Assembly: GCA_036170495.1 (NCBI GenBank)
Contig: JAVHPH010000252.1
Reading direction: 5' to 3' (one strand)
From: Azonexus sp.
GTDB lineage: Bacteria > Pseudomonadota > Gammaproteobacteria > Burkholderiales > Rhodocyclaceae
Length of the DNA: 43,386 bases
The notes under the pieces were generated by a model, which had not been told where the DNA came from, ran no database searches, and saw only the letters and a list, made by a program, of their open reading frames with translations. Shown piece after piece: positions 1 through 42,835 of this stretch. The position numbers and the translations under genes were made by a program. Each line of letters begins with the position of its first letter. Position 1 is the first letter of the stretch.

Positions 1-413
1 TGACCGTTCTCGTCGGAGCCGACGGCGTGCATCTCGGCAAGGATGACGGCAACCTGATGGTGGCTCGCGCCCTGCTCGGACCGCACCGTATTCTCGGTGC
101 TTCGTGCTACGCCGACTTCACTGCCGCACAGGGGGCCGACGCAGCCGGTGTCGATTACGTTGCCTTCGGTGCCGTCTATCCGTCACCGACCAAACCGAAC
201 GCGTCGCTCGCCTCCGGCGATTTGTTTTTTGCCGCAAAAACCCGGTTGACCGTAGCAAGCTGCGCCATCGGCGGCATCACGCTGGCCAACGCGGCGCCGC
301 TCATCGCTGCCGGCGCCGACCTGCTCGCCGTCATCACCGACCTGTTCAGCGCGCCCGACATCGCGGCGCGCGCTGCCGCCTACCAACGTCTTTTCGAGGA
401 GCACTCCGCATGA
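1..413 (+). CDS. thiE: Thiamine-phosphate synthase, 5'-truncated by window edge
   Basis: Motifs [22 protein letters not shown] and AIGGI; the frame is open from the window start; stop overlaps the hemL ATG. Confidence 0.9.
220..256 (-). repeat. Dispersed 37-bp motif copy, inside thiE
   Basis: atttgttttttgccgcaaaaacccggttgaccgtagc; encodes [11 protein letters not shown]. Confidence 0.8.
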
Positions 414-1693
414 CCTCTCGCAACCAGCAACTGTTCGAACGCGCCCAACGCCACATTCCGGGCGGCGTCAATTCGCCGGTGCGCGCCTTCCGCTCGGTCG
501 GCGGCACGCCCTGTTTCTTCCAGAAGGGCGTCGGCGCCAAGGTTCAGGATGCCGACGGCAAGTGGTACACCGATTACGTCGGTTCGTGGGGCCCGATGAT
601 CCTCGGCCACGCCCACCCGAAGGTTATCGCTGCTGTGCAGGCCGCCGTCGTCGATGGCCTGTCCTTTGGCGCGCCGACCGAGAAGGAAGTCGACATCGCC
701 GACCTGCTCTGCGAACTGGTACCGTCGATGGACATGGTGCGTCTGGTTTCCTCGGGCACCGAGGCGACGATGAGCGCCATCCGTCTGGCCCGTGGTTACA
801 CCGGCCGCGACCTCCTGATCAAGTTTGAAGGCTGCTACCACGGCCATTCCGACGGCCTGCTCGTCAAGGCCGGCTCCGGCCTGCTGACCTTCGGCAACCC
901 GTCATCGAGCGGCGTCCCGGCCGGCGTGGCCGAAAACACCATGGTCCTCACCTACAACGATCCGCAGGAACTGGCCGATGCTTTCGCCAAGCATGGCGAC
1001 AAGATCGCCGCCGTCATCGTCGAACCAGTCGTCGGCAACATGAACCTGATCGCTCCGACCCCAGCCTTCCTGAACGCCATGCGCGAGCTGTGCACGAAGA
1101 ACGGCTCGGTGCTCATTTTTGACGAGGTGATGACCGGCTTCCGCGTCGGCCTGAAAAGCGCCCAGGGCCTGTTCGGCATCACGCCGGACCTGTCCACTTT
1201 CGGCAAGGTGGTCGGCGGCGGCATGCCGCTCGGCGCCTTTGGCGGCAAGCGCGAAATCATGGAACAGATCGCCCCGCTTGGTCCGGTCTATCAGGCCGGC
1301 ACCCTGTCCGGCAACCCGATCGCCACGGCAGCCGGTCTGGCTACGTTGAAGCTCATCCAGGCGCCCGGTTTCTACGAAGCCCTGACCGCCAAGACCAAGG
1401 CCCTGTGCGACGGCCTGGTCGCCGCCGCGAAAAAACACGGCGTCGCGTTCTCCGCCCAGAACATCGGCGGCATGTTCGGCCTCTATTTCGCCGAAAAATG
1501 CCCGGGCACCTACGACGAAGTGCTGGCCTGCGACAAGGAAGCCTTCAACCGCTTCTTCCACGCCATGCTCGACGCCGGCCACTACTTTGCGCCGTCGGCC
1601 TTCGAAGCCGGCTTCGTTTCGGCTGCCCATTCCGACGCCGACATCGCGGCCACCATCGCCGCTGCCGACGCCTGGTTTGCCACGCAGAAGTGA
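410..1693 (+). CDS. hemL: Glutamate-1-semialdehyde 2,1-aminomutase
   Basis: [30 protein letters not shown] and the PLP lysine motif [11 protein letters not shown] at 410 overlaps the thiE stop. Confidence 0.97.
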
Positions 1694-2028
1694 ATTCCGG
1701 TTCCGCCTGGCTGATCCTCTTCGTCGCCGGCCTCTGCGAGGTCGGCTGGGCGGTCGGCCTGAAATACACCGAGGGTTTCAGCCGCCTGTGGCCATCGGCC
1801 GCGACGCTGGTGGCGATGACGGCCAGCGTCGCCCTGCTCGGCTGGTCGCTCAAAGTCCTGCCACTCGGCACGGCCTACGCGGTGTGGACGGGCATCGGCG
1901 CCGTCGGCACCGCGATCCTCGGCATGCTCCTGTTCGGCGAGTCGCGCGAGGTACTGCGCTTCGTCTGCATCGGCCTGATTGTCGCCGGCATCGTCGGCCT
2001 CAAGCTGGTCACGCCGGAAGGGCTTTAA
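1690..2028 (+). CDS. sugE: SMR-family exporter, SugE/Gdx subtype
   Basis: [25 protein letters not shown] and [16 protein letters not shown] overlaps the hemL TGA. Confidence 0.9.
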
Positions 2029-2089
2029 GCTCGCCGACGAAAAAAGCGCAGTAAGATTCCCGCAATAAAAACACAGGGGGAGCGGCGCC

Positions 2090-41380: not shown

Positions 41381-41430
41381 GGTGACTCGATCAAGGTAAA
41401 ATCGCCCCCATTCTAACGGCTCGAACTGAA

Positions 41431-42777
41431 ATGCACATTCACATTCTCGGCATCTGCGGCACTTTCATGGGCGGCGTTGCCCAATTGGCGGTCGATTCGG
41501 GCCACAAGGTCACGGGCTGCGACGCCAACGTCTATCCGCCGATGAGCGACCAACTGCGCGGTGCCGGTATCGAGCTGATCGAAGGTTTCGAGACCGATCA
41601 ACTCAAGCTCGCGCCGGATGTCTTCGTGATCGGCAACGCCATTTCACGCGGCAACCCGCTGCTCGAAGCCATTCTCGACAAGGGCCTGCCTTACGTTTCC
41701 GGGCCGCAATGGCTGGCCGAGAACCTGCTGCAGGGCCGCTGGGTACTCGGCGTCGCCGGCACGCACGGCAAGACGACGACGGCCTCGATGCTGGCCTGGA
41801 TTCTCGAGGCGGCCAACATGGATCCCGGCTTTCTGATTGGCGGCGTGCCATTGAACTTCGGTGTTTCGGCCCGGCTCGGCGGCACGCCGTTCTTTGTCAT
41901 TGAGGCCGATGAATACGACACGGCCTTCTGCGACAAGCGTTCCAAGTTCGTCCATTACCGCCCACGAACGGTCATTTTAAATAACCTTGAATTCGATCAC
42001 GCCGACATTTTCAGCGATCTGGCCGCTATCGAAACGCAATTTCACCACCTCGTGCGCACCCTGCCACAATCCGGGCTGATCGTTTCCAACGCCGCCGAAG
42101 CCAGTCTGGACCGGGTTTTAGCGCGCGGTTGCTGGACGCCGGTGGAACGTTTCAACGACCCGGCAGGCTATTTCGTGACGGGGGACGACGCCCGCGGCGA
42201 ACTGGTTTTGCACTCGCCTGACGGCAAAGTTCGGCGGACGGTCTGGGGACTTTCTGGTAACCACAATCGGGCCAATGCCTGTGCCGCGCTGCTTGCCGCC
42301 CGCCATGTTGGCGTGCCGCTTGAGCAGGGGCTCGACGCTTTGTCGCGCTTCGTCAATGTCAAACGGCGCATGGAAGTGTGCGGCGAAGTGCGTGGCGTGA
42401 CGGTTTACGACGACTTCGCGCACCATCCGACAGCCATCGCGACGACCGTCGCCGGCTTGCGTCGCAAGGTTGGCAAGGCCCGCATCCTGGCTGTGCTGGA
42501 GCCGCGCTCGAATACGATGAAGCTGGGCACGATGAAGGCGCAACTGCCGGACAGCCTGCGCGAAGTCGACATGGCTTTTTGCTATGCCGGCAACCTCGGT
42601 TGGGATGCGCGCGAGGCGCTGGCGCCGATGGGCGAGCGCGCCGTCATTGAAGACGACCTGGCCCGACTAGTCGATCAGATCGTCATCGCGGCGCAACCGG
42701 GCGACCACATCCTGGTCATGAGCAACGGCGGTTTTGGCGGCATTCACGGCAAAATCCTGGCCGGGCTAACTGAGTAA
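41431..42777 (+). CDS. mpl: Murein peptide ligase
   Basis: MHIHILGICGTFMGG, GTHGKTTT, EADEYD, DDFAHHP, MSNGGFGG. Confidence 0.97.
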   Translation: MHIHILGICGTFMGGVAQLAVDSGHKVTGCDANVYPPMSDQLRGAGIELIEGFETDQLKLAPDVFVIGNAISRGNPLLEAILDKGLPYVSGPQWLAENLLQGRWVLGVAGTHGKTTTASMLAWILEAANMDPGFLIGGVPLNFGVSARLGGTPFFVIEADEYDTAFCDKRSKFVHYRPRTVILNNLEFDHADIFSDLAAIETQFHHLVRTLPQSGLIVSNAAEASLDRVLARGCWTPVERFNDPAGYFVTGDDARGELVLHSPDGKVRRTVWGLSGNHNRANACAALLAARHVGVPLEQGLDALSRFVNVKRRMEVCGEVRGVTVYDDFAHHPTAIATTVAGLRRKVGKARILAVLEPRSNTMKLGTMKAQLPDSLREVDMAFCYAGNLGWDAREALAPMGERAVIEDDLARLVDQIVIAAQPGDHILVMSNGGFGGIHGKILAGLTE

Positions 42778-42798
42778 AACTCGGCGTTTGGCCGAAAT

Positions 42799-42835
42799 CC
42801 CACGGTCAACTGGGAAATGGGGCCAAAAATAAAAA
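42799..42835 (+). repeat. Dispersed motif copy abutting a terminator
   Basis: cccacggtcaactgggaaatggggccaaaaataaaaa. Confidence 0.75.

Follow-up and report, generated by a model that had tools for sequence, protein, structure and literature searches.

The closest described counterparts of the motif analyzed here occur in two families that are both host-associated, the Pasteurellaceae and Neisseriaceae, and for the Pasteurellaceae the receptor is only predicted. Discrimination of DNA by its sequence is described for these two families alone, according to the accessible text of bioRxiv 10.1101/2025.06.16.659825. In Haemophilus, the uptake signal sequence (USS) couples a core to helically phased A/T tracts on one side (accessible part of PMC3458573). 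In the available portions of the sources, USS and the DNA uptake sequences (DUS) of Neisseriaceae lie mostly in genes with a reading-frame bias and are enriched between genes (PMC2817400), and they are scarce in acquired DNA (PMC7811141, PMC2397512). Here we report an abundant 40-bp motif, probably a DNA uptake signal, in a 43,386-nt stretch of DNA that was analyzed in full ("the window") and in its source genome, G000, which we infer to belong to Azonexus (Dechloromonas-like; genus g1) within the Rhodocyclaceae (family f1).

At scores of 14 bits or more, a weight matrix trained on the whole G000 genome located 19 motif sites in the window (one per 2.3 kb), whereas 200 third-order Markov simulations of the window averaged 0.025 sites and never gave more than one. 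The core pattern proposed by an earlier sequence-only reading of the window matched 29 times with at most one mismatch (8.5 expected), a count reached in 0/100 shuffles. Thirteen copies were on the minus strand and six on the plus strand; ten lay in predicted genes, eight between genes, and one touched a start codon. The surrounding DNA was ordinary housekeeping sequence (hemL, mgtE, aroE, thiC, waaA, glmS, accC, mpl). Scanned at the same threshold, G000 (3.30 Mb, 499 contigs, 61% GC) contained 998 sites, one per 3.3 kb, compared with two in a fifth-order Markov genome, and its top 10-mer and 25 top 12-mers all belonged to the motif. Hexamer totals against the same kind of Markov genome were uninformative by construction. 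The motif is real and genome-wide, not confined to the region in which it was noticed. It is apparently undescribed: searches with Dechloromonas, Azonexus, and the core strings returned no description, and no mention of Rhodocyclales, among the matches listed (judged by title or abstract for the core strings), within a literature search that most subscription journals fall outside.

The motif is an asymmetric word with a nearly invariant RCGGTCRAC core and phased A/T tracts on one side, together carrying 37.7 bits. The base before CGG is preferentially A (773 A, 136 G). Two A/T tracts, offset by 11 bp, occupy +11 to +16 and +22 to +27, and a further short run of A covers +29 to +31; the tracts consist of AA, TT, and AT steps, TA steps being few. 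Across 296 intergenic copies, information was confined to −8 to +32, and single copies did not fold (z of 0.48, 0.48, and −0.50). With tracts in place, the core in G000 was directional: GTCAAC occurred 565 times, GTCGAC 185 times, GTTAAC once, and GTTGAC never. Copies with perfectly palindromic cores also had their tracts on one side, with tracts on both sides in 0/244. Sixteen of the 17 positions listed in the sequence-only reading were copies; position 28741 was a core-like word without phased tracts (<3 bits), the copy listed at 12311 was real but displaced, and three copies it had overlooked were recovered by the matrix (Table 1). Its two one-sided tracts 10–11 bp apart agree with the genome-wide spacing, and its core does differ, as it stated, from those of Haemophilus and Neisseria. 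Its ~37-bp length has been refined to ~40 bp with the third tract, and the core in which it saw a near-palindrome is read in one direction only.

Using our own gene calls for G000, 608 sites (61%) were fully within genes, 93 partly, and 297 intergenic, where random placement predicts 84%, 6%, and 10.5%. Two reading frames dominated among copies in genes (269/64/25 sense, 158/79/13 antisense). A codon-aware background, which had been suggested from the window, gave 67–75 coding hits when synonymous codons were resampled with proteins fixed, versus 610 observed, so the word is kept at the DNA level. Intergenic copies were about 3x over-represented and lay a median of 22 bp after stop codons. The strands of G000 were balanced (472 plus, 526 minus), as were consecutive pairs of the same and different orientation (325/317). 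G116, a single-contig genome, had 112 exact matches (forward 60, reverse 52), of which the 100 listed were spread along the chromosome; the two single-contig handles examined for polarity appear to be one chromosome. Strand totals in G003 were 227 and 219, which shows an apparent plus-strand run among the matches listed to be an artifact. Copies in G000 were more evenly spaced than random, with 41 gaps below 500 bp versus 120 ± 9 (minimum 92 in 1,000 permutations). Gaps below 100 bp numbered 7/642, and inverted pairs were rare.

The motif is thin in accessory DNA, for which low GC served as the proxy for acquisition. Density fell from 0.40 to 0.06 per kb between GC-rich and GC-poor windows of G000. 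The longest motif-free stretches, named by reading protein starts, were restriction-modification, plasmid-like, secretion, and accessory metabolic islands. One strict 27-base pattern occurred at five places in three of 2.9 million viral contigs (L260–L264), which had one or two strong copies per 10 kb, a host-like or lower density.

Four coding sites of the window (in thiC, waaA, an epimerase/dehydratase gene, and glmS) were compared by script with orthologues in up to 80 genomes, which fall into motif-positive and motif-negative classes. The motif aligned to the orthologues without insertions in nearly all rows, and at these sites it arises by substitution and not by insertion. CGGT was kept at the thiC site in 22/24 positive and 1/13 negative genomes, and at the epimerase/dehydratase site in 31/42 positive and 0/20 negative genomes. 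At the glmS site, where the protein is conserved, a rare TTG leucine codon that spells the core was present in 42/48 positive versus 1/28 negative genomes, while the remaining glmS leucines were 7–8% TTG in both classes. Fisher tests across these genomes overstate significance, since related genomes are not independent samples. In waaA, the site of G082 spelled that genome's own dialect of the motif, and G104, G106, and G109 spelled theirs. These orthologous sites are the strongest indication that the genome is shaped by a trans-acting reader, whose specificity the sites appear to follow, and the dialect switches and losses seen genome-wide point to the same kind of reader.

An exact 21-mer search of 16/64 parts of a species collection found 109 loci. 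Among the 80 listed, those with a genus name belonged to Azonexus, Ferribacterium, and Dechloromonas, names that we take to be merged in GTDB, and the remainder had family or class names only. One G000 protein matched a protein labeled Azonexus sp. at 89% identity. We then surveyed 102 genomes of the genus (at least 85% complete) with a loose pattern of CGGT plus the two tracts. Excess over the reversed control was at least 30 per Mb in 61/102, 10–30 in 5/102, and below 10 in 36/102. Loss was complete in these 36 genomes, which included sisters of positive ones; two of them, G049 and G066, retained scattered relic copies. In a protein tree built from ten genes of 81 genomes, the positive and negative classes were interspersed, with at least ten changes and the positive state at the midpoint root, a rough count since some rows had few aligned residues and there were long branches. 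There were at least five core spellings, all with CGGT and the same tract spacing: CGGTCAAC in G000; palindromic ACGGTCGACCGT in G043; GCGGTGCAC in G104, G106, and G109 (27 copies in 100 kb of G109 versus 2 expected); CGGTCGCC or CGGTCGGC in G082 and G113; and CGGTGAAC in G068, where few copies were seen. No hidden dialect was found in the 36 negative genomes, where the loose pattern was at control level, a test whose reach is limited to signals with CGGT, and 320 kb of G066 held no comparable abundant word. Within one genus the motif differs in spelling between lineages and is lost in several.

Outside the genus, 380 genomes from 76 other Rhodocyclaceae genera showed an excess, in a table read by eye, only in G183 and G283 of genus g76. 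Both are 1.8-Mb AT-rich genomes (43% GC in the G183 sample). They contained 1,303 and 1,291 copies of CCACGGTVRAC, respectively, and the congener G242 contained none; these exact-word counts are the better measure of abundance in g76, as the reversed-pattern control in the G183 sample was high (103). In 400 kb of G183 (a 22% sample), 339 cores included 87 head-to-head pairs, 55 at exactly 42 bp and 11 at 31 bp, one helical turn shorter. Only three of the pairs were within genes and many lay just after stop codons. Such inverted pairs would form hairpins and may act as terminators, a use best read as co-option. The pattern matches the terminator pairs of uptake sequences described in the available text of PMC2397512 and bioRxiv 10.1101/2025.10.24.684340. 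G242, the one motif-negative g76 genome (97% complete), was without pilA, pilE-fimU-pilV-pilW, and two PilT/PilU paralogues found in G183 and G283. No obvious common exported receptor candidate appeared in the 22% sample of G183. As a separate observation, G183 had at least seven pilA-like genes with a common N-terminus at scattered places, which suggests pilin variation.

Among described systems the motif most resembles the Pasteurellaceae USS (Hin-type AAGTGCGGT, Apl-type ACAAGCGGT; accessible text of PMC3458573 and PMC2817400). Both combine a core with one-sided phased A/T tracts, and CGGT is common to both USS core types and the motif. Hundreds to thousands of copies, a mostly genic location with frame bias, no polarity, scarcity in acquired DNA, dialects that vary around an unchanging inner core, and, in g76 only, inverted pairs after genes are further likenesses. 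The motif differs in that the conserved bases of its RCGGTCRAC core run 3′ of CGGT and A is preferred before CGG, unlike the GCGG inner core of the USS. Its tracts start ~4 bp further from RCGG and a third short tract follows. The hosts also differ, being GC-rich environmental Betaproteobacteria, with inverted pairs rare in G000 and repeated loss in one genus. Judged by its sequence, the motif is not a member of the Pasteurellaceae USS proper. With the Neisseriaceae DUS (GCCGTCTGAA and dialects, receptor ComP) it shares an abundant dispersed word, lineage dialects, core-genome bias, and inverted pairs that may serve as terminators, but the DUS is a short continuous word with a CTG core and no A/T tracts, and no dedicated ComP-like pilin was found here. 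In cyanobacterial HIP1 and in the methylation-dependent uptake of Campylobacter, an abundant word whose palindromic part is a possible methyltransferase target may aid transformation. The present motif differs from those words in being 40 bp long, asymmetric, and not tracking an orphan methyltransferase.

We propose that the motif is probably a DNA uptake signal that biased uptake, with recombination, has spread. By analogy with Haemophilus, the reader would act at DNA uptake: a pilus- or secretin-associated surface receptor would read the RCGGTCRAC core, and the phased A/T tracts would ease bending of the DNA into the uptake pore (secretin). Biased uptake followed by recombination would then fix motif-matching mutations across the shared genome wherever they were tolerated. 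Such a process would account for a motif biased to shared DNA, for close neighbors being thinned out, and for the codon choice, and a change of receptor would respell the motif while loss of specificity would let it decay. The data agree with an uptake signal in over-representation, absence of orientation bias and clustering, frame bias with intergenic enrichment, scarcity in low-GC and accessory DNA, copies that arise by substitution, dialects that leave an inner core constant, and the presence of competence genes. The sequence-only reading had offered an uptake or self-recognition signal as one possibility, and nearly every sequence test that could be run supported uptake; the competence genes do not track the motif, however, and an intracellular DNA-binding protein retains some probability.

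Several observations weigh against uptake. G000 encodes the type IV pilus and competence genes that one would look for (comEC, comEA, dprA, pilA, and the tip-pilin operon pilE-fimU-pilV-pilW), but comEC was present in 98/102 genomes of the genus and in all three g76 genomes, and pilE in 97/102 genomes of the genus, irrespective of the motif, and the negative G242 keeps both pilT and comEC. In motif-positive G003, comEC is split by ~33 kb. The sole ComP-family (PF16732) hit was the ordinary pilE of the tip-pilin operon, and pilE types differed among close relatives sharing one dialect. No receptor was found: among the pilins and ComEA forms checked, none tracked the motif, and scanning G000 for prepilins with relaxed criteria turned up no additional stand-alone pilin. 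ComEA fell under the family cut-off in 10/102 genomes (7/61 positive, 3/36 negative), including single-contig G116, the densest genome after G000, and a second ComEA query on five of the seven positive genomes found none. In Vibrio cholerae, uptake requires ComEA (available text of PMC3879209), and the non-detection of ComEA counts against present-day uptake in those seven genomes. Inverted pairs are rare in G000, unlike in G183, and the matches listed in a literature search included no report of natural transformation in Dechloromonas. Even spacing would also fit a chromosome-organizing site. As far as the accessible texts go, the spacing of known uptake sequences is less even than that expected of compaction sites (PMC1939737), but USS distribution is elsewhere called relatively even (PMC7811141); these views differ, so spacing does not decide.

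Other receptor candidates were considered and rejected. The PF16732 hit was set aside as a ComP-like receptor given how widespread this pilE is, stand-alone pilins in G116 and G056 are GspG, the long ComEA has only an extra Pro/Ala-rich tail and occurs in both positive and negative classes, and the negative G242 also has the conserved secretion-type pilins found on contig C69. The ComEA of G000 (L113:1438-2184, on G000:C294) has a Pro/Ala-rich tail of ~160 residues, and throughout the genus long forms are found alongside short ones. The tip-pilin operon of G000 (C262:3457-11687) is GC-poor (genes 49–53%, contig 55%) and its type differs among close relatives, so it has probably been exchanged between species. 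In two genomes (G003:C33:109525-144033 and G089:C1:2218607-2251879), ~33 kb interrupts comEC at nearly the same point, suggesting a mobile element that targets a competence gene, and in G066 comEC is spread over two frames.

An alternative that we regard as unlikely, and yet take seriously, is that the motif is the binding site of an intracellular protein with a role in organizing or bending the chromosome, or in loading repair or recombination machinery. Sites would then be kept by selection at a density near one per 3 kb and would change as the protein's specificity drifted or was lost. The even spacing, the competence genes that fail to track the motif, and the positive genomes in which ComEA was undetected all favor such a site, and dialect switches and losses require only a trans-acting reader, not uptake. 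But some 1,000 sites of 37.7 bits that alter proteins, together with complete loss in 36/102 genomes, are difficult to reconcile with site-by-site selection and follow from a drive by biased uptake. The one-sided architecture also copies that of a known uptake signal, and in g76 the motif is missing together with type IV pilins, albeit in one genome only. There is a slim chance that the motif is a methylation-marked self signal or HIP1-like word, its GTNNAC core being the target of a conserved orphan adenine methyltransferase and methylation either driving the motif or being read with it. GTNNAC is kept in the spellings GTCAAC, GTCGAC, GTGCAC, GTGAAC, and GTAAAC. An orphan adenine methyltransferase (G000:C266:3195-4376, with no adjacent nuclease) was found in 101/102 genomes of the genus and in both positive g76 genomes, and not in the negative one. 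The same enzyme occurred in 389/401 genomes of the family, nearly all motif-free, so the motif does not track it; G082 and G113 keep it with a dialect (CGGTCGCC, CGGTCGGC) that lacks the core adenine; and GTTGAC and GTTAAC are excluded on the motif strand. The enzyme may resemble a GTNNAC methyltransferase, a likeness that homologue look-ups did not confirm: the names of its homologues gave no target, and no plasmid homologue was found. If methylation does take part, it is more likely to modify the uptake model than to replace it.

That the motif is the relic of a small mobile repeat (a repetitive extragenic palindrome, REP, or miniature inverted-repeat transposable element, MITE) or a transcription terminator family is very improbable, and for G000 this is largely refuted. 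The 3x excess of intergenic copies close behind stop codons speaks for it, as does G183, in which about half of the cores are in hairpin-capable pairs after genes. Conservation ends at the 40 bp, however, single copies do not fold, the window has no Rfam match other than one riboswitch, and the copies within genes, in both orientations, show substitution with no insertion signature. The REP/MITE alternative, named in the sequence-only reading as one that would refute it, fails. Least probable of all is a polarized or regional chromosome signal (KOPS, the FtsK-orienting polar sequence; Chi; matS; parS) or a sigma-70 promoter element, which could be read from the asymmetric word and, on its reverse strand, from A/T tracts preceding TTGAC(C). 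Single-contig chromosomes show neither strand polarity nor a cluster, on which the matS-like and KOPS-like options first raised from the window fail; no information sits at the −10 box position; and the dialects GTGCAC and GTCGCC destroy TTGAC.

Within the window (Table 1), the two near-consensus copies at 60 bits are identical. The sole Rfam match was a thiamine pyrophosphate (TPP) riboswitch at 23126-23221, upstream of thiC. Two Spy/CpxP-like genes (12410-13066 and 18011-18613), 70% alike over 300 nt and each with a similar 73-nt upstream stretch (84%), flank the MacAB-TolC-like efflux operon. An 83-nt direct repeat (87%; 20236-20318 and 21064-21146) consists of a motif copy followed by a terminator-like hairpin and brackets two small open reading frames (ORFs). 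A weak match, far under the cut-off, to a phosphorothioated-DNA restriction endonuclease family was seen at 18595-19482.

Table 1 Motif copies of at least 14 bits in the 43,386-nt window. ER, sequence-only reading.
Feature	Position	Strand	Score (bits)	Context
Motif copy	219..258	-	42	within ORF 27-413
Motif copy	4629..4668	+	50	intergenic, SulP-family gene / mgtE
Motif copy	7201..7240	-	20	within aroE
Motif copy	7615..7654	-	22	within aroE; overlooked by ER
Motif copy, GTCGAC variant	10821..10860	-	32	within ORF 10565-11134
Motif copy	12335..12374	+	41	intergenic, after Spy/CpxP-like gene; 12311 in ER
Motif copy, near consensus	13084..13123	+	60	intergenic, directly after MacB-like gene; identical to 20234 copy
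Motif copy	15044..15083	-	57	intergenic within MacAB-like efflux operon
Motif copy	17629..17668	-	43	upstream of efflux outer-membrane gene (own gene call); inside it if longest ORF start 17942 is taken
Motif copy, palindromic core	18980..19037	both strands score	23.5 plus / 16.8 minus	within ORF 18688-19482; 18985 in ER
Motif copy	20234..20273	-	60	intergenic
Motif copy	21062..21101	-	53	intergenic, after thiC
Motif copy	22538..22577	-	27	within thiC
Motif copy	27952..27991	-	48	within waaA
Motif copy	30917..30956	+	30	within epimerase/dehydratase gene
Motif copy	31837..31876	-	18	antisense within glmS; overlooked by ER
Motif copy	33060..33099	-	58	between glmS stop and apaH start
Weak motif copy	36734..36773	-	15	within ORF 36439-37503; overlooked by ER
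Motif copy	42797..42836	+	44	intergenic, after mpl

We tentatively suggest, at somewhat less than even chances, that the motif marks a third sequence-specific uptake system, in free-living Rhodocyclaceae and with a receptor unrelated to ComP/ComN, that was respelled several times and lost repeatedly within one genus with ~1,000 sites rewritten each time, and whose GTNNAC may be methylated in most lineages. With sister species that carry, lack, or respell the signal, a third case would make the origin and decay of uptake signals testable, as drive versus selection. The reader of a USS-type signal would become findable, because it must change where the dialect changes. If the reader proved to be intracellular, the motif would be an unknown kind of chromosome-wide signal, and if it is indeed an uptake signal, it would offer a simple route to transform Dechloromonas and Azonexus.

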